NCBI GenBank assembly: GCA_963762145.1
Contig: CAVXJS010000011.1
Location: forward strand, 512,001 to 576,000
Source: an uncultured Candidatus Rokubacteria bacterium
GTDB lineage: Bacteria; Methylomirabilota; Methylomirabilia; Rokubacteriales; CSP1-6
Length of the DNA: 64,000 nucleotides
Direction: 5' to 3'
Positions 19,443 to 57,236 of this stretch are shown here, one piece after another. Each line of letters opens with the position of its first letter. Position 1 is the stretch's first letter. The notes under the pieces were generated by a model. The model was not told the origin of the DNA, did not search any database, and worked only from the letters and a program-made list of their open reading frames with translations. The translations under genes and the position numbers were made by a program.

Positions 19443-20459
19443 TCAGCGGCCGGCGGCGCCGGGCAGCCCGGCGCGGATGCGGCGCGAGAAGTCCGGCGCC
19501 TGATCGGCAGCCTGGGCGGCGGCGTTGACGCGGGAGCGTCGCTGGAGCTCCTCGAAGGGTAGGCTCCGGTCCATGCGGCCCGACTCGTAGACGTAGGCCG
19601 GCGCGTAGCCGCTCACGAGTACCTTCCAGGACAAGGGGAGGGAGTCCTGGTTCACGCGGGTGTTCATGAGGATCGCGGTGGTGCAGTTGGTGGTGAGCGT
19701 GTTGTAGAACTCCGGGCGCTCGCGCAGCGTGTTCATCTGGCGCACGTATTCGAGGAAGATGCTCCGGATGTTCTCGGGGGGCACGCGCAGGGGGTAGACG
19801 TAGAAGTCCTCCGGCGGGTCCTTGCGATAGTTGGTCCTGAGCCGGACCACGTCGCGCTCGTCGGCCACGACGTAGTAGAGCTCGTACTGCCGGAAGAAGC
19901 CCTTGACCGAGGAGTAGCCCTCGCCCTTCTCCTTGCGGGCCTCGATGGAAATGGCGAGGTGGTCGTCGCCGAAGCCGAACGAGACGAAGAGGTGGGCGAT
20001 GGCCGGCCCCATCCAGTACACGGCCATGAGGTCCCCCGAGTCCAGCTTCTTCAGGTCGTAGGTGCGATCGGAATAGGCGGGGGTGAAGTCGGTCTCGGTG
20101 CGGTAGTCGAAGTTCCTGACGTTGTGCACCGTGACCTGGTCGCCGTCGATCGTCGCGTAGGCGAGCCGGGCGACCTCGGGCTGCCAGTCGCGCTCGTTCG
20201 ACGGCTGGATGCCGCTCCATCAGCCCGCGATTGCGACAAGCGCGACCGCGAAGGCGGGCAGGGCAAACCGGAGGCCCCGATGAAGCACGAGCGCGACGAC
20301 GGCGGTGAGCCCGGCCACGCCGTACGCGGCGGCCAGGACGAGCCGCCCCTTGTCGCCGCCGGGCCCCACGACCGTCAGAGCCAGCGCGCCCCAGCCCGTG
20401 AGCGCCAGCACCGCGAGAGCTGCGAGCCAGCGAACCGAGCCGGTCAGGAAGCGGCGCAC
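19443..20459 (-). pseudogene. DUF4105 (Lnb-like) protein interrupted by in-frame TGA at 20222-20220
   Basis: One frame: AIAG*WSGIQPSNERDWQPEVA...HNVRNFDY...AHLFVSFGF...YNTLTTNCTT. Confidence 0.75.
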
Positions 20460-20515
20460 GAGCCTTCACCCTCGAGCATCGGGGGGAGTGTGTCCGTCCA
20501 GGTCTGCTCGGTCAA

Positions 20516-45715: not shown

Positions 45716-46546
45716 TCAGCCCTTCCGGGCGGCCTTGCCGTCCTTGTGGACCAGGGCGACCGCGGCCTCGGGGGTGAGGACGCGGAAGGCCATCGTCTCG
45801 ACCAGGTAGAGCCGCACCGCGCGGTCGGTGTGACTCTGGTAGGCGATCGACAGGTCGCGGCCGATCGTGAGCTCGAAGTCGCCCCCGCGGAGGCTCAGCA
45901 CCACCGCGCCCTTGACCGCGGGCGCCCAGACGAGCGGGCCGTCCACCAGCTTGCGGACCACGTTCAGCACCGGGTAGCCGCCGTCGCCCACCGCCTGGGT
46001 GAGGCCGGTGTAGTAGCGCGGCCCCATCGCGATGGCGTAGGGCCCGTCCACGCCGGCCAGGCGCAGGAGCCGGGTCGCCTCCGCGATGCTGTGCGGGTAC
46101 TCCTGGTAGTCGTCGGGGATCGGCAGGATCGGATGGGACGACGCCTGCTCGATGCCCTTGATCCCGCCCGCCGCGTAGCCGTGGAAGATGGCGGTGTCCT
46201 CGGCGAGGGCGATGCGGGTGGCGGCGTCGATCAGGGGCTGCAGCTCCGGGTCCTCCGCGCCGCGCTCGACCGCATCCATCTCCTCGCGCGACAGCTCGAA
46301 GTACGAGCGCAGCTCGATCAGGGACAGCGCCTGCCGCCGGGAGGCCTCGACGTCGGGGGCCGGCGCGCTGCTCAACGGCTCGCGGCGTCCGGTGTTCACC
46401 GCCGCCGCGGTCGGACCGAGCGGCCCGTCGAAGTCCACCAGCTTGCGGCCCGCGAGCTTCAGCTTGAGGACCCGGCTGGCCTCGTCGTCGATCTCCTTCC
46501 ACGCCGCGGTCGAGATGGGGGCGAGCTCCCGCTTCAGGTTGTTCAC
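45716..46546 (-). CDS. Family 1 encapsulin shell protein (Linocin M18)
   Basis: MNNLKRELAPIS..AW..ID.EA, GPLG, GGDFEL.IG.DLSI.Y. Confidence 0.95.
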   Translation of the reverse strand: MNNLKRELAPISTAAWKEIDDEASRVLKLKLAGRKLVDFDGPLGPTAAAVNTGRREPLSSAPAPDVEASRRQALSLIELRSYFELSREEMDAVERGAEDPELQPLIDAATRIALAEDTAIFHGYAAGGIKGIEQASSHPILPIPDDYQEYPHSIAEATRLLRLAGVDGPYAIAMGPRYYTGLTQAVGDGGYPVLNVVRKLVDGPLVWAPAVKGAVVLSLRGGDFELTIGRDLSIAYQSHTDRAVRLYLVETMAFRVLTPEAAVALVHKDGKAARKG

Positions 46547-46923
46547 AGGCTCTGACCCCCCTTGAGGCTGCCGATGCCGAGCGAGCCGCCGCCGGCCCCG
46601 TCGTCGCCCTCCTCGCCGCCGGCTCCGGCCTGCTCCAGCGCGATCAGCGAGCCGCTCGTGAACAGGTACTCCTTCAGGTGCGCGTCCATCTTGGCGTCAC
46701 GCCGCCGGTACCACTCGAGCAGCATGGCGAAGTGCTCCTTCTCCTCGTCGCGGTTGTGGGCCAGGATGTCCTTCAGGTCCTGGTCGGTCGCCGCGTCGAC
46801 GCGCTGATCGTACCAGTCGGCCGCCTCGAGCTCCTCCTGCATGGAGGTGAGCGCCCGGTGGTTGTCCAGGGTCTCCGGCCGCAGCTTGCTTTCCGATTCG
46901 TGATAGCCCGCCGAGTTCGCCAT
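46543..46923 (-). CDS. Encapsulated ferritin-like protein (EncFtn/Flp) with cargo-loading peptide
   Basis: EELEAADWYDQR, HNRDEEKEH, C-terminal GGSLGIGSLKG. Confidence 0.95.
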   Translation of the reverse strand: MANSAGYHESESKLRPETLDNHRALTSMQEELEAADWYDQRVDAATDQDLKDILAHNRDEEKEHFAMLLEWYRRRDAKMDAHLKEYLFTSGSLIALEQAGAGGEEGDDGAGGGSLGIGSLKGGQSL

Positions 46924-49740: not shown

Positions 49741-49756
49741 TGCACGTTAGGGGCCA
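49741..49756 (-). promoter_or_regulatory. Putative sigma54 promoter
   Basis: Minus strand TGGCCCCTAACGTGCA (GG-N10-GC). Confidence 0.45.
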
Positions 49757-49864
49757 TGCGCGCGGCGAGATATTTGGCCTACTTGGAGCCCCGGGCGACG
49801 GCCGGCGTGACGGTGAGCGTCGCTCGGCTTGACGAAGCGTCGATTTGGACTGATCCTCCAGCGC

Positions 49865-50686
49865 ATGGGAACGATCACCACGAAGGACGGCACCCAGATC
49901 TACTACAAGGACTGGGGAAGCGGTCCGCCGATCGTGTTCAGCCATGGCTGGCCCCTGAGCGCGGACGCGTGGGACGATCAGATGCTGTTCCTCGGCGCGC
50001 GCGGCTACCGCTGCATCGCCCACGACCGCCGGGGTCACGGGCGGTCGAGCCAGCCCTGGAGCGGCAACGAGATGGACACCTACGCCGACGACCTCGCGGC
50101 GCTGGTGGAGGCACTCGATCTCAACGGCGCGGTCCACGTCGGGCACTCGACCGGCGGCGGCGAGGTCGCCCGCTACCTGGGCCGCCACGGCACGAAGCGG
50201 GTGGCCAAGGCGGTGCTGATCGGCGCGGTGCCGCCGATCATGCTGAAGACCGCCGCCAACCCGGATGGTCTGCCGATGGAAGCGTTCGATCAGATCCGGA
50301 CCGGCGTCCTCACGGACCGCTCGCAGTTCTTCAAGGATCTCTCCGGGCCGTTCTATGGCGCCAACCGGTCGGGCGCCAAGGTCTCGCAGGGCCTGCGCGA
50401 CTCGTTCTGGCTCCAGGGCATGCTGGCCGGCTTCAAGGGCGTCTTCGACTGCATCAAGGCCTTCTCGGAGACGGACTTCACCGAGGACCTCAAGACGATC
50501 GACGTGCCGACGCTGATCCTGCACGGCGACGACGACCAGATCGTGCCGATCGGCGCCTCCGCGATGCGGTCGGCGAAGCTGGTCAAGAGCGCCACGCTCA
50601 AGGTCTACCCGGGCCTGCCGCACGGCATGTGCTCGACGCACAAGGTGCAGATCAACGCCGATCTGCTCGCGTTCCTCAAGGCATGA
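49865..50686 (+). CDS. Non-heme chloroperoxidase/perhydrolase (alpha/beta hydrolase)
   Basis: [37 protein letters not shown]. Confidence 0.93.
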
Positions 50687-51150
50687 GCGCGCCAATCGCG
50701 AGACGGAGCCTCCTGGTCGGAACCGCGGCCCTCCTGGTCGCCGGCGCGGGCGGACGCCTCGCGGGCGCGGCGGCGAAGCCCACGATCACGGTCCACAAGT
50801 CGCCGACCTGAGGCTGCTGTGCGGCGTGGGTCGGGCACCTGCGCGCGGGCGGTTATCCGGTGACGGCGGTTGACCTCGAGGATCTCGCGCCCATCAAGCG
50901 GAAGCTCGGCGTGCCGCGCGCGCTGCAGAGCTGCCACACCGCGGCGGTCGAGGGTTACGTCATCGAGGGGCACGTCCCCGCCGACCTGATCGACCGTCTG
51001 CTGCGCGAGCGGCCTTCCGTGGTCGGCCTCGCGGTACCGGGCATGCCCGTGGGCTCTCCCGGGATGGAGGCGCCGGGCCAGGCCGCCGATCGCTACCAGG
51101 TGCTCGCGTTCGATCAGAAGGGGCACACCACCGTCTTCGCCAGCCGCTGA
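50683..51150 (+). CDS. CopG/DUF411 metal-binding protein, Tat signal, in-frame UGA (50809-50811) probably selenocysteine
   Basis: One frame: RRSLL...[16 protein letters not shown]...SCHTA...EGHVP...[11 protein letters not shown]; 155 aa with U43. Confidence 0.85.
50812..50854 (+). promoter_or_regulatory. Candidate bacterial SECIS hairpin
   Basis: GGCUGC-UGUGCGG-c-GUG[GGUCGGG]CAC-CUGCGCG-cgg-GCGGUU; apical loop opens with G, 17 nt after UGA. Confidence 0.65.
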
Positions 51151-51196
51151 GCGGGCCGCGCGTCGCTTCGCGACGGCCCCGTGATAGACTCCCGCC

Positions 51197-52393
51197 GTGC
51201 TGTCCACGCTCGAAGCCCGAGAGGGCCACGGGCCCCTGAGCGGCGTCATCGTGCTCGATCTGAGCGGCTACGTGGCCGGTCCCTACGGCTGCACCCTGCT
51301 CGGCGACCAGGGCGCCCTCGTCATCAAGATCGAGCCGCCCGAGGGCGACAACCTCCGCAACTACCCGTCCACCATCCCGGGGGAGAGCCGGGCCTTCCTC
51401 GGGGTCAATCGCAACAAGCGCGGCCTCGGCCTCGACCTCAAGCATCCCGACGGCCTGGGCGTGCTGCGCCGGCTGGTCGAGCGCGCCGACGTGCTGGTCC
51501 ACAACTTCCGGCCGTCGGTGCCCGCGCGCCTGGGCATCGACTACGACCGGATGCGGGCGCTGAACGAGCGCCTGATCTACTGCGCGCTGACCGGCTACGG
51601 TGATCGGGGGCCGCTCAAGGACCGCGCCGGCTACGACCAGGTGCTCCAGACCATGACCGGCATCTGCGAGGAGCAGGGCAAGCCGGGCGATCCCCAGATC
51701 GTCTACGGCTCCGCGGTGGACTTCTACACGGCCTCGCTGCTGGCCTTCGCGGTCTCCTCCGCGCTCTTCGAGCGCTCGCGCACCGGGCGCGGGCAGCACC
51801 TGAGCGTATCGCTCCTGCGCGGCGCGCTCACGATGCAGGCAACCCGGCTCGTTTGGGTGGACGGCGAGCCGCGCGACGTCTGGCGCGACATGCGCTCGGG
51901 AGGCATCACCGGCATCCACCCCACGAAGCACGGCAGCCTCTACATCTCGGCCAACACGCCCCACTTCTGGAAGGCCCTGTGCGAGCTGACCGGGCTGGCC
52001 GAGCTCGCGGGCGATCCCCGCTTCGACACGGTGCGGAAGCGGGCCGAGCACGAAGCGGTGCTCGTCCCGCAGCTGCGCGCGGCGCTGCAGGCGCGCACCG
52101 CGGTCGAGTGGGAGGCGCACTTCGGCGAGCGGGTGCCCTGCGCGGCGGCGCGTCCGGTGGAGGACATGTTCGATCATCCGCAGGTGGCCGCCGAAGGCAT
52201 CCTGGCGAGCTTCGAGCATCCGGGCGTGGGGCACTACCGCGGGATGGCGCACCCGGTCCGCTTCGGCGAGGGCCCGCCGCCCGCGCCCTTCGCGGCGCCG
52301 CAGCTCGGACAGGACTCCCGGAAGATCCTCGCGAGCCTCGGCTACTCCGACGCGGAGATCGAGCGACTGCGCGGCGCGCGCACGGTGGTCTGA
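51197..52393 (+). CDS. Class III CoA-transferase (CaiB/BaiF)
   Basis: AGPY, VIKIEPP.GD, NRNKR, NFRP, GYD. Confidence 0.92.
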   Translation: MLSTLEAREGHGPLSGVIVLDLSGYVAGPYGCTLLGDQGALVIKIEPPEGDNLRNYPSTIPGESRAFLGVNRNKRGLGLDLKHPDGLGVLRRLVERADVLVHNFRPSVPARLGIDYDRMRALNERLIYCALTGYGDRGPLKDRAGYDQVLQTMTGICEEQGKPGDPQIVYGSAVDFYTASLLAFAVSSALFERSRTGRGQHLSVSLLRGALTMQATRLVWVDGEPRDVWRDMRSGGITGIHPTKHGSLYISANTPHFWKALCELTGLAELAGDPRFDTVRKRAEHEAVLVPQLRAALQARTAVEWEAHFGERVPCAAARPVEDMFDHPQVAAEGILASFEHPGVGHYRGMAHPVRFGEGPPPAPFAAPQLGQDSRKILASLGYSDAEIERLRGARTVV

Positions 52394-53295: not shown

Positions 53296-54867
53296 TCAGG
53301 AGTCGATCCGGCGCTCGTCGAGGTCCAGCTCCCGCTCGAGCGCCCGCAGCACGTCGTCGTCGATCGCGCCCTCCGCGCGCAGCCGCAGGAGCGCCTCGCG
53401 CTCCGAGTCGATCACGGTGCGCTGGATCTCGCGGTGCTCGATGATCTCCCGATCCTCTTCGCCCGCGCCCGCCGCGTCCCGCTGCCGCTCCACGTGCTCC
53501 GACTGGTGCTCGAAGGTCTCGCGCAGCCGATCGAGCAGGGGGCGGTGGTTCGGCCACACCGGATAGAGGGTGTCGATCCGCCGCCGGGCGGCCTCGACGA
53601 GCTGCTGGCGCGCGCGGGCTTCTTCCTCGCGCAGCTCCGGATCGGTGCCCAGCCGCAGCCTCCGGATCAGCCACGGCAGGCTGAGCCCCTGGCCCAGCAG
53701 CGTGAACACGATGACGGTCACGGTCACGATCACGAGCGCTTCGCGCGCGGGAAAGGGCGCGCCGCCGGGCAAGCTGAGCGGGAGGGCGAGCGCGAGGGCG
53801 AGGGAGACGGCGCCGCGCATCCCGGCCCACGAGAGCACCAGCGCGTGCGCGAGGAAGCGGGGCGGGCGCGGCTCGCGCCGCACGGCGCACGCCAGGAGCT
53901 CGCTCGGGAAGATCCAGAGCGCGCGGACCGCGAGCAGGACCAGGCTCACGACGAGGCCGATGCCGACCAGCCGGAGGGCGGTGGCGGGCTCGAGCGAGCG
54001 CAGGAGGAACGGGACTTCCAGGCCGGTGATGATGAAGACCACCCCGTTCAGCAGGAAGGTGACCGTCTCCCACACCGCGCGCCCGGTGAGGCGGGCGTCG
54101 GCCCCCATCATGCGCGAGCCGCGGCGGCCGAGGTAGAGCCCCGCGACCACCGCCGCGATCACCCCGGAGGCGCCGAGCTCGTGGGCCGGCAGGAACGCGG
54201 CGTAGGGCGTCAGGAGCGAGAGCGTGATCTCGACCGGCGTGTCCTCGATGCGCTCGCGCACCTTCGCGATGATCCAACCCACCGCGAGGCCGATCGCCAG
54301 GCCGCCCAGCATGGCGCTCACGAAGGTCCCGACGCCGGCGGACGCCTTGAACGAGCCTCCGACGGCCACCGCGATCGCGATGCTGTAGATCGAGAGCGCG
54401 GTGGCGTCGTTCAGGAGGCTCTCGCCCTCCAGGACCGATACGATCCGCCGCGGGACGGCCAGGCGGGAGGCGACCGCGGCCGCCGCGATCGCGTCGGGCG
54501 GCGCCACGATCGCGCCGAGTGCGATGGCCACCGCCCACGGGATGCCGGGGATCAGAGCGTGCACCACCGCGGCCACCGCGAGCGCACTGACGACGACCAG
54601 GCCGACCGCGAGCGAGCCGATCGTGCCCAGGTTGGCGCGCAGGCTCCGCAGGGGCGTGAAGAAGGCCGCGATGTAGAGGAGCGGAGGCAGGATGAAGAGG
54701 AAGATGAGATCCGGGTCCACCTCGACATGCAGGGTGCCCGGCACCAGCCCGAGCACGAGTCCGCCGATGACGAGGAAGATCGGGTAGGCGATGCCGAGTC
54801 GCCGCGCGATCGTGACGAGCGCGGCGACCGCGATGAGCAGAGCCAGGACGAGCTGGGCGCTCTGCAT
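53296..54867 (-). CDS. CPA1 Na+/H+ antiporter
   Basis: PPDAIAA, EGESLLNDAT, GMRGAVSLA. Confidence 0.93.
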   Translation of the reverse strand: MQSAQLVLALLIAVAALVTIARRLGIAYPIFLVIGGLVLGLVPGTLHVEVDPDLIFLFILPPLLYIAAFFTPLRSLRANLGTIGSLAVGLVVVSALAVAAVVHALIPGIPWAVAIALGAIVAPPDAIAAAAVASRLAVPRRIVSVLEGESLLNDATALSIYSIAIAVAVGGSFKASAGVGTFVSAMLGGLAIGLAVGWIIAKVRERIEDTPVEITLSLLTPYAAFLPAHELGASGVIAAVVAGLYLGRRGSRMMGADARLTGRAVWETVTFLLNGVVFIITGLEVPFLLRSLEPATALRLVGIGLVVSLVLLAVRALWIFPSELLACAVRREPRPPRFLAHALVLSWAGMRGAVSLALALALPLSLPGGAPFPAREALVIVTVTVIVFTLLGQGLSLPWLIRRLRLGTDPELREEEARARQQLVEAARRRIDTLYPVWPNHRPLLDRLRETFEHQSEHVERQRDAAGAGEEDREIIEHREIQRTVIDSEREALLRLRAEGAIDDDVLRALERELDLDERRIDS

Positions 54868-54926: not shown

Positions 54927-57236
54927 ATGGACGCGACCACCGTCGTCGATCCGGTCTGCGGGATGGACGTGACGCCCGGCGACGCGGCGGGCGGCAGCGC
55001 GGAGCACGCCGGGACGACCTACTGGTTCTGTAATCCGAGCTGCCGGGAGCGCTTCATCGCGGATCCGGCGCGCTTTCTCCACCGATCCGCGTCCGCGCCC
55101 GAGGGGCGGGGCTCGGGGCGGGACCCGCGGATCTACACGTGCCCGATGCACCCGGAGGTGCGCCAGGCCGGGCCCGGGAGCTGCCCCAAGTGCGGCATGG
55201 CGCTCGAGCCGCTCGAGGTCACCGCCGACGAGGGCCCGAGCCACGAGCTCGTGGACATGACCCGGCGCTTCTGGGTGAGCCTCGCCCTCACCGTGCCGGT
55301 GCTCGCCCTCGCGATGGGGGAGATGCTCGCGCCGGGGCTGCTCGCCGCGCTCGGCCCCACCGGGTGGCTCTGGAGCCAGCTCGTCCTCGCCACGCCGGTG
55401 GTGCTGTGGGGCGGCTGGCCGTTCTTCGTGCGCGGCTGGCAGTCGCTGGTCACGCGCAACCTGAACATGTTCACGCTGATCGCGCTGGGCACGGGCGCCG
55501 CGTTCGGGTACAGCGTCTTCGCGGCCCTGTTTCCGGACACGCTCCCGCACGCGATGCGGCACGGCGGCGTGCCGCCCGTGTACTTCGAGGCCGCGGCCGT
55601 CATCACCACGCTGGTGCTGCTGGGGCAGGTCCTGGAGCTGCGGGCCCGCAGCGCGACCTCCGGCGCCATCCGGGCGCTGCTGGGTCTCCAGCCCAGGACC
55701 GCCCGCCGCCTCCGCGAGGACGGCCGCGAGGAGGACGTACCGCTCGAGCACGTCGCGGTGGGCGACCGGCTGCGGGTACGGCCGGGCGAGCGCGTGCCGG
55801 TGGACGGCGCGGTGCTGGAGGGCCGAAGCGCGGTGGACGAGGCTCTGGTCACCGGCGAGCCGATCCCGGTGGAGAAGGAGCCGGGCAGCCGCGTGACCGG
55901 CGGAACCGTCAACGGCACCGGCGGCTTCGTCATGCGCGCGGACCGGGTCGGCGCCGACACCCTGCTGGCGCAGATCGTTCGCATGGTCGGGGAGGCGCAG
56001 CGGAGCCGCGCGCCCATCCAGCGCCTGGCCGACCAGGTCTCCGCCTGGTTCGTCCCGACGATGGTGGCGGTGGCGGTGCTGACCGCGCTGGGGTGGGGAC
56101 TCTTCGGACCGGAGCCGCGCGTGGTCTACGCACTCGTCAACGCGGTCGCGGTGCTGATCATCGCGTGCCCGTGCGCGCTCGGTCTGGCGACCCCCATGTC
56201 CATCATGGTGGCGACCGGGCGCGGCGCCCAGGCGGGCGTGCTGATCAAGCACGCGGCCGCGCTCGAGACGCTCGAAAAGGTCGATACGCTCCTCGTGGAC
56301 AAGACGGGCACGCTCACCGAAGGCAAGCCGCGCCTCGTCTCGGTGGTCGCCACCGACGGGGTGACCGACGCCGAGATCCTGGCCCTGGCCGCCGGGCTCG
56401 AGCGCGGCAGCGAGCATCCGCTCGCCGCCGCCATCCTGGCCGCCGCCGCCGAGCGGGGCGTGCCGTCGAGCTCGGTCGGCGCGTTTCGCTCGCTCACCGG
56501 GCGCGGCGTGACCGGCGAGGCCGCAGGCCGTCGCGTGGCGCTCGGCAACGCGCGCCTCCTCGAGGAGCTGGGCCTCGACGCGGGCGAGCTCGGGAAGCGC
56601 GCGGAGGCCCTGCGCGAGGAAGGGCAGACGGTGGTGTTCCTGATCGCGGGCGATGCGGTCGTGGGCCTCCTCGGCGTCGCGGATCCCATCAAGGCGAGCG
56701 CGGGCCGGGCGGTCCGCGATCTCCAGGGGGAAGGTCTGCGCGTGATCATGGTCACCGGCGACAGCGCGGCCACCGCGCGGGCGGTCGCCCGCACCCTCGG
56801 ACTCGACGACGTGATCGCCGAGGTCTTGCCGGAGCGGAAGGCCGAGATCGTCCGCCGCTTCCAGGCCGAGGGCCACGTGGTGGCCATGGCCGGCGACGGC
56901 GTCAACGACGCGCCGGCCCTCGCGGCGGCCGACGTGGGCATCGCCATGGGCACGGGCACGGACGTGGCGATGGAGAGCGCCGACATCACCCTGGTCCGGG
57001 GCGACCTGGGCGGCATGGTGCGGGCGCGCCGGCTCGCCCGCGCGACCATGCGAAACATTCGCCAGAATCTCGTCTGGGCCTTCCTCTACAACGCCCTCGG
57101 GGTGCCGGTCGCGGCGGGCCTGCTCTACCCGTTCGCCGGCCTGCTGCTCAGCCCGATGCTCGCGAGCGCGGCGATGAGCCTCAGCTCGGTGTCGGTGATC
57201 GCCAACGCGCTGCGGCTCCGCCGCGTGCCGCTCTGA
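54927..57236 (+). CDS. copA: Cu(I)-translocating P1B ATPase with YHS domain
   Basis: [39 protein letters not shown]. Confidence 0.93.

Follow-up and report, generated by a model that had tools for sequence, protein, structure and literature searches.

The closest described counterpart of the gene analyzed here is CopG of Pseudomonas aeruginosa (structures 6WIS and 6WJE). According to a review, CopG is a periplasmic protein with a thioredoxin-like domain which holds a tetranuclear copper cluster by means of a CxCC motif and two methionines, and it has been proposed to oxidize Cu(I) to Cu(II) and to pass copper on to cuproproteins (PMC7558416). We investigated a gene of the same family, DUF411, in a stretch of 64 000 nt from a soil bacterium, an uncultured Candidatus Rokubacteria member of the phylum Methylomirabilota. 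This whole stretch is called the window in the following (contig CAVXJS010000011.1, C11:512001-576000 in our numbering); the genome assembly comprises 25 contigs and 6.26 Mb at 70% G+C and 88% completeness. The original prediction for this locus had proposed a seleno-CopG, exported through twin-arginine translocation (Tat), in which a UGA codon for selenocysteine (Sec, U) replaces a cysteine of the CxCC motif and is followed by a hairpin resembling a selenocysteine insertion sequence (SECIS). This interpretation is supported overall by our analysis, namely by the Sec machinery of the genome, by the alternation of TGA and Cys codons among homologs, by independent contigs, by the hairpin and by the family assignment. 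We consider it highly probable that the locus encodes an exported Sec-CopG whose UGA would be decoded as Sec by means of the genome's Sec system and the hairpin, with a role in copper redox chemistry that is suggested by homology.

The predicted window protein shares with P. aeruginosa CopG the Pfam family, the fold, the position of the motif and the Cys-His, His and Met-x6-Met stretches. It differs in that the first motif Cys is a predicted Sec, encoded by a UGA with a SECIS-like hairpin, in that its gene lies outside a copper-resistance cluster and in that its leader carries a twin-arginine motif. With the thioredoxin-fold selenoproteins of the UxxC type (thioredoxin, glutaredoxin, DsbA-like and DsbG-like proteins, among others) it has in common the predicted Sec in place of the N-terminal Cys before helix 1, the coexistence of Cys-form homologs and a SECIS-like element just 3' of the UGA, although the motif in the window is U-x-C-C and by homology would belong to a multi-copper site and not to a simple dithiol/disulfide center. 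Periplasmic formate dehydrogenases are Sec-containing Tat substrates, and the window gene resembles the genes of their alpha subunits by its twin-arginine leader and its in-frame UGA; unlike the window protein, however, formate dehydrogenases are large molybdoenzymes of unrelated fold and function. COG3019 is the COG of DUF411. In a table of predicted Tat substrates, COG3019 ('predicted metal-binding protein') is listed, as is COG0243 ('anaerobic dehydrogenases, selenocysteine-containing') (PMC3305326). The motif listed most often in Table 1 of a 2026 review of selenoproteins is UxxC (PMC13188914). The same table holds soft-metal-handling selenoproteins in which, as predicted for the window protein, Sec replaces a metal-ligand Cys; these belong, however, to other folds and families, and a soluble, exported oxidoreductase holding a Cu4 cluster bridged by Cys is not among them.

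On the plus strand of the window, positions 50683-51150 form a single frame, in which the TGA at 50809-50811 is the sole break and a frameshift is absent, as had been claimed. The frame closes at TGA 51148-51150 and, with the internal TGA read as U, gives 155 residues including U43 and ending in ...FASR; the residues just ahead of the TGA are HKSPT. Its ATG at 50683 shares the letters ATGA with the stop codon (TGA 50684-50686) of an upstream alpha/beta-hydrolase open reading frame (ORF, 49829-50686), which also agrees with the earlier description. The features of the gene are the following:

50683-51150, plus strand: coding sequence of the predicted Sec-containing DUF411/CopG protein, 155 residues (open frame with TGA as U; Pfam 96.3 bits; 6WIS E 1.3e-33)
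50683-50775, plus strand: predicted signal peptide, residues 1-31 (A-R-R-S-L-L, hydrophobic core, A-A-A before K32)
50809-50811, plus strand: in-frame UGA, predicted Sec U43 (aligned with the first Cys of CGCC; TGA in 46 of 125 loci)
50809-50820, plus strand: U-G-C-C motif (U43, G44, C45, C46), corresponding to the C-x-C-C metal-site motif and also readable as UxxC (alignment and model)
50813-50853, plus strand: SECIS-like stem-loop within the coding sequence (RNAfold and conservation pattern)
50923-51066, plus strand: Pfam DUF411 core, residues 81-128, with the stretches S-C-H-T, E-G-H-V-P and P-G-M-P-x-G-S-P-G-M (profile positions 1-48 of 48)

The mechanical ORF list cuts this gene into two pieces, 49756..50811 and 50860..51150, just as the original prediction had described, and the second piece is 96 aa long with a GTG start. 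The protein database entry for the window's own gene consists of this 96-aa 3' piece only (P0050). Among the best 120 database matches, drawn from more than 7,900 proteins at E<=1e-20, 20 are 96-109 aa long, and the three truncated entries that we inspected (P0050, P0051 and P0071) begin downstream of the UGA, from which we conclude that gene callers shorten Sec-DUF411 genes.

Next, we compared the codon at U43 among homologous loci. Using the DUF411 protein as query, we found matches in 33 of 61 related genomes and in 65 of 251 genomes of the phylum (both tallies include the unpublished genomes G029 and G243, whose loci are outside the 125 loci counted in the following), and a named genome collection was scanned as well, from which 80 loci were kept. 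At the codon aligned with U43, 46 of the 125 loci (L009-L133) read TGA and 79 read Cys (TGC/TGT), and the column in the homologs holds Cys, never Trp. The TGA is thus conserved at this Cys column with Cys-form homologs elsewhere, as a true Sec codon had been expected to be. Within the phylum Methylomirabilota 36 of 45 loci are Sec forms; the other Sec forms are labeled Chloroflexota (5), Gemmatimonadota (3), Rokuibacteriota (1) and 'delta proteobacterium' metagenome-assembled genome (MAG) (1). Closely related Cys forms exist as well: one (P0002) is 89-90% identical to the window protein, and another (L015) falls inside the window's own genus. The closest named database proteins carry the label Methylomirabilota, and a named Rokubacteria contig (L054) and a relative from the same order (L034) encode identical proteins. 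In a quick maximum-likelihood tree of the 125 proteins we counted at least 10 changes between Sec and Cys, at least three of which are forced by well-supported branches, and a branch with 97% support separates four Chloroflexota Sec forms from the Sec clade centered on Methylomirabilota. The sequence at 50809-50811 was checked in soil metagenome contigs from two other studies, which show no difference at these positions and read TGA: one contig covers 50522-50852 (X8 record 29), and one from the second study covers 50795-50945 with 0 differences (X10 record 5). Some relatives possess two DUF411 copies (G013, G041, G046 and G215). In G046 one copy is a TGA form (L021) and the other is without internal stop, while in the same-genus genome G013, with copies at C8:425189-425653 and C39:67319-67774, the second copy is also flagged with TGA.

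The genome contains selA, selB, selC and selD, the presence of which had been named beforehand as a check. On contig C9 we found selA (753893-754987, 500 bits), which has a selB wing domain as its direct neighbor, and selC, the tRNA-Sec with anticodon tca, at 756629-756726. Two selD genes score above the cut-off in the assembly. One of them (L003, C11:419505-420437), ~92 kb upstream of the window, itself carries an in-frame TGA in the context CAG-U-ASK, followed 15 nt after the UGA by a near-perfect palindromic hairpin whose loop has the same distance to the UGA as in the Sec-CopG gene; the second selD (C14:136744-137655) is without TGA. The presence of selA was also considered as a discriminator between genomes with Sec and Cys forms, and was rejected as such for the counts given below.

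The assignment to DUF411/CopG and the position of the UGA exactly on a motif Cys, both part of the original prediction, are borne out by sequence and by predicted fold. The Pfam score for DUF411 (PF04214) lies far above the gathering cut-off of 27 bits (8.6e-28), the CopG structures 6WIS/6WJE match over residues 34-153, and U43 is there aligned with the first Cys of C-G-C-C. In an alignment of 57 sequences (A3) the U43 column is an invariant Cys in the 56 Cys-form homologs, and the invariant positions are T42, C43 (U in the window), C45, C46, W49, C84, H85, H97, M121 and M128. The metal-site motif is therefore present as U-G-C-C, with the replacement of the first Cys by Sec as its sole substitution. 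An AlphaFold2 model was calculated from the 57 aligned sequences with Cys standing for Sec; it reached a mean predicted local distance difference test (pLDDT) value of 87.9, with low values of 48-54 in the signal-peptide stretch (residues 1-31). Comparing the model with chain A of 6WIS by Foldseek gave an E-value of 6.1e-17, a template modeling (TM) score of 0.91 (normalized by the target) and a root-mean-square deviation of 1.6 A, at 46% identity to Pseudomonas CopG over 125 structure-aligned columns, so that the model has the thioredoxin-like fold of 6WIS together with its C-terminal extension; the next matches, which are weak, are thioredoxins, NrdH-redoxins and glutaredoxins. Since in the model a strand (residues 35-39) leads via U43 into a helix (residues 44-55), U43 would be situated directly before helix 1, where CxxC motifs of the thioredoxin fold have their attacking Cys, and U-G-C-C can be read on this model as a thioredoxin-fold UxxC redox motif. 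NCBIfam has no model for the window DUF411 protein.

The first 31 residues resemble a signal peptide: they contain A-R-R-S-L-L, a hydrophobic core and A-A-A before K32, where the cleavage site was read manually. By regular expression, the pattern RRx followed by two hydrophobic residues occurs in 35 of 37 same-phylum Sec forms compared to 2 of 10 same-phylum Cys forms. Four Chloroflexota Sec forms (L065, L076, L081 and L101) have leaders of the lipobox type (L-x-x-C) and no twin-arginine leader. From the leader of the window protein an extracytoplasmic location of Sec-CopG is likely, and export by the Tat route is plausible on the basis of the twin-arginine motif.

SECIS elements of the type used in bSECISearch have an apical loop 16-37 nt after the UGA which contains a G. 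In the Sec-CopG gene RNAfold predicts a stem of 50825-50831 and 50837-50843 that encloses the loop CGGGC (50832-50836), and a lower stem is formed by 50813-50823 with 50844-50853. The hairpin is found 15-35 nt after the UGA, and its loop begins 20 nt after it. The hairpin announced by the original prediction is therefore present, but the loop given there (GGUCGGG, 17 nt after the UGA) results from taking the top three pairs as open. For comparison among loci we scored a conserved core of eight pairs (50824-50831 with 50837-50844). Counted over the 46 Sec forms, 91.3% of the 368 cells of this core are paired, compared to 22.8-63.3% in slid controls. Five of the eight pairs show double-sided changes, and on four of five measures none of 500 shuffles comes up to the values found, although the structure was taken from one of the sequences compared and the shuffle counts overstate the case because the sequences are related and not independent.

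The comparison between Sec and Cys forms points in the same direction. Same-phylum Sec forms (n=37) keep 7.70 of the 8 pairs on average, with all 8 kept in 29 of 37, and same-phylum Cys forms (n=10) keep 5.50; this comparison includes 71 Cys forms overall, as the strict motif regular expression missed eight Cys loci (L066, L082, L085, L087, L091, L109, L117 and L130), which stand outside the hairpin statistics. The third codon positions in the stem are nearly fixed in the same-phylum Sec forms (Ala GCG in 37/37, Leu CTG/CTA in 37/37, Arg CGC in 35/37), whereas in the same-phylum Cys forms the Leu codon ends in C in 6/10 and in G in 4/10, and the Arg codon in G in 8/10 and in C in 2/10. Third positions in the loop vary among the Sec forms, with 21 G and 16 C at one position and 17 G, 11 C, 6 T and 3 A at the other. 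In one Sec form (L032) the loop-closing U-A pair is exchanged for C-G at the cost of two amino-acid changes, V to A and a nearly invariant H to R. The check set beforehand, that the hairpin be conserved, thus came out positively for both the core pairs and the stem third positions, and the hairpin stands out from chance by its conservation pattern and not by its energy. Hairpins of different sequence occur at the same place in other phyla (L077 and L112 with 8 bp, L081 with 6 bp, as well as L116, L068 and L093). In the four Chloroflexota loci mentioned above the hairpins after the UGA are weak or differently placed, and the SECIS of Chloroflexota Sec-DUF411 loci may be of another shape.

Putting these results together, we propose the following course of events. 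When the ribosome reaches the UGA at 50809-50811, SelB carrying Sec-tRNA(Sec) would recognize the hairpin, so that Sec is inserted, and the Tat system would then export the pre-protein, probably in a folded state. The selenol would take the place of the first Cys of C-x-C-C, giving U-G-C-C, and by homology to CopG a chalcogenide-bridged copper cluster may be held by U43, C45 and C46 together with the conserved Cys-His and the Met pair. Sec-CopG would interconvert Cu(I) and Cu(II), or hand them over, outside the cytoplasm. Compared to a thiolate, a selenolate should be deprotonated at neutral pH, bind Cu(I) more tightly and resist irreversible over-oxidation. Selenium may provide a ligand or redox center that is more nucleophilic, of lower pKa and more tolerant to oxidation.

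Several observations weigh against this reading. The energy of the hairpin is unremarkable: its z-value is -0.85, 35 of 200 shuffles (70% G+C) fold at least as well, and the 45 nt that follow the codon have a mean minimum free energy of -20.5 kcal/mol in same-phylum Sec forms and of -20.0 kcal/mol in same-phylum Cys forms, and for these reasons we rejected the folding energy as SECIS evidence. The RNAalifold consensus (-1.27 kcal/mol) is without the hairpin, and when positions 50000-52000 were compared with Rfam at E<=10, three matches attributed to chance were obtained but no SECIS family. Among the nine Sec forms of other phyla, three (L065, L076 and L101) have weak hairpins of -2.4 to -5.3 kcal/mol. 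Besides the relatedness that inflates the shuffle counts, the conserved W-V-x-H-L codons dictate a portion of the stem, as a consequence of which Cys forms also keep about 5 of the 8 pairs. Regarding export, the protein has no TAT_signal match in Pfam (E<=0.01) and no match in NCBIfam (E<=1). Regarding the machinery, selA was found in 8 of 10 Sec-form genomes outside the relatives and, among ten control genomes that carry Cys forms and come from similar phyla, in nine. In one Sec-form genome (G259, locus L112) neither selA nor selB was found above the cut-off and in another (G253, locus L081) selB was found and selA was not; both genomes may be incomplete. Contigs from RNA libraries (the runs X16 and X17, which gave identical records and were counted as one) span only 50989-51195, a stretch without the UGA, and are no proof of transcription. 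The remaining points concern the copper role: the putative copA lies 3.8 kb off and behind a Na/H exchanger on the opposite strand, and among the 85 neighbor ORFs of the 46 Sec loci no recurrent copper gene was found in the 25 commonest of 63 Pfam families.

The genes of the neighborhood bear directly on this last question. Their order in the window is encapsulin with EncFtn-like cargo, amidohydrolase, alpha/beta hydrolase, Sec-CopG, CoA-transferase, Na/H exchanger and P1B ATPase, and the genes next to Sec-CopG are:

49829-50686, plus strand: alpha/beta-hydrolase gene, whose stop overlaps the Sec-CopG start as ATGA (Pfam; context)
51197-52393: family III CoA-transferase
53296-54867, opposite strand to Sec-CopG: Na/H exchanger
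54927-57236, plus strand: P1B-type ATPase (copA) with an N-terminal YHS domain and an HMBD domain (Pfam)

The Pfam label of the upstream hydrolase, called a chloroperoxidase in the original prediction, is alpha/beta hydrolase only, and its co-transcription with the Sec-CopG gene is possible. A copA gene about 3.8 kb downstream had been part of the original prediction, and a P1B ATPase is indeed there; the link drawn from it is weak, as the CoA-transferase and the opposite-strand exchanger stand between and the neighborhood is not conserved. The commonest neighbor family at the 46 Sec loci, alpha/beta hydrolase, accounts for 4 of the 85 neighbor ORFs; these had been selected for their proximity and by a filter on third-position G+C, so that some of them may be wrong. 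A conserved gene neighborhood was rejected as support, since the 46 Sec loci showed none. In DUF411/CopG, genes for copper export or oxidases are frequently linked, but such linkage is neither universal nor defining. As no recurrent copper gene stands beside the Sec forms, the copper role proposed here has CopG homology as its basis.

This leads to the alternative that survives best, which accepts a real selenoprotein and assigns it another substrate, the UxxC motif acting on Hg, Ag, As, Se or envelope disulfides. The lack of a conserved copper neighborhood at the 46 Sec loci and the non-adjacent P1B ATPase would fit this explanation, as would the thioredoxin, NrdH and glutaredoxin folds that follow CopG among the structural matches. 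It also finds a precedent in that, according to the review, many of the catalogued bacterial UxxC selenoproteins are thiol oxidoreductases or linked to Hg or As (PMC13188914). On the other hand, the family-invariant residues C45, C46, C84, H85, H97, M121 and M128 are all kept, the copper-binding Pseudomonas CopG belongs to the same family at the identity given above, and the sole studied DUF411 member is a copper protein according to a review (PMC7558416). Altogether we regard a non-copper substrate as rather unlikely.

A different explanation is that the TGA terminates translation, the locus being either a pseudogene or a short signal-peptide ORF followed by a DUF411 fragment of 96-113 aa. 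Gene callers do read the locus in this way, the insertion of Sec is inferred, and the folding energy gives no argument against termination. However, a TGA is found at exactly the same codon in 46 loci of several phyla with the frame and the amino acids conserved on either side of it, and a product started downstream would be devoid of the signal peptide as well as of the invariant C-x-C-C. How a TGA without such conservation behaves can be seen elsewhere in the window, where an in-frame TGA at 20220-20222 (minus strand; frame 19446-20465, 340 residues) was considered as another Sec codon and rejected, because it is common to 0 of 7 homologous places (five in relatives, which read Tyr or Ala, and two paralogs in the own genome). 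Situated between N-terminal membrane helices and the periplasmic Lnb_N domain (PF13387), it gives the impression of a nonsense mutation, of an error in the assembly or of a later start. For the TGA at 50809-50811 we therefore consider termination very improbable. Equally little speaks for readthrough of the UGA by a near-cognate tRNA (Trp or Cys), or for a reassigned TGA, without Sec: of the 27 confident ORFs in the window 19 end with TGA, the Sec-CopG gene and its upstream neighbor among them, which argues against a genome-wide reassignment, the homologs never have Trp at the column, a full Sec system with a Sec-type selD is present and the hairpin is conserved in Sec forms only.

Two side observations on the neighborhood may be added. 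The encapsulin gene (Linocin_M18, 2.6e-88) stands directly downstream of the EncFtn-like cargo gene (6.7e-36) at 45716-46923 on the minus strand, which makes an iron-storage nanocompartment pair. For the P1B ATPase at 54927-57236 the ORF list shows no in-frame TGA; proteins with a YHS domain are listed among the selenoprotein families in Table 1 of PMC13188914.

Returning to the Sec-CopG reading, we examined whether such a protein is already catalogued. Table 1 of the review of May 2026, which lists 119 prokaryotic selenoprotein families or subfamilies, has no DUF411, PF04214, CopG or UxCC entry (PMC13188914). The main texts of BSepDB (PMC13326102) and deep-Sep (PMC12013277) do not contain DUF411/CopG either, although their supplementary tables could list one. 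Literature searches for selenocysteine together with DUF411, CopG or COG3019 gave nothing relevant, with the supplements of Peng 2016 and Deng 2026 as further places that could list one. According to the review, a Methylomirabilota MAG is predicted to have 63 selenoprotein genes, and the phylum is reported to contain the largest predicted bacterial selenoproteome (PMC13188914); Sec-DUF411 may for this reason already sit unnamed in such a list. By its sequence the window protein appears to be a genuine Sec form of CopG with UGCC (UxxC) which is absent from the catalogue examined. The copper protein family and the bacterial Sec mechanism are the known part of this finding; the new part is the Sec form, which is widespread and mis-annotated as fragments.

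A further-reaching proposal, for and against which we see about equal grounds, is that Sec-CopG constitutes a widespread, as yet unannotated soil family of Methylomirabilota, Chloroflexota and Gemmatimonadota in which the selenolate bridges or caps a tetranuclear Cu cluster in the envelope and in which Sec and Cys have been interchanged repeatedly. For annotation, the genes concerned are mis-called as fragments of 96-109 aa without signal peptide and metal motif, and pipelines would need a rule for them. With Cys forms of about 90% identity, nature would offer proteins with either Sec or Cys at one and the same ligand of a Cu4 cluster bridged by Cys, and with such a pair (U43 versus C43) the role of selenium at the copper center becomes directly testable. 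If the Sec-CopG reading is true, the prokaryotic selenoproteome would gain one more family, abundant in a little-studied soil phylum, and under the further-reaching proposal the protein would be a natural Se-Cu cluster protein that ties the use of selenium to extracytoplasmic copper redox homeostasis.

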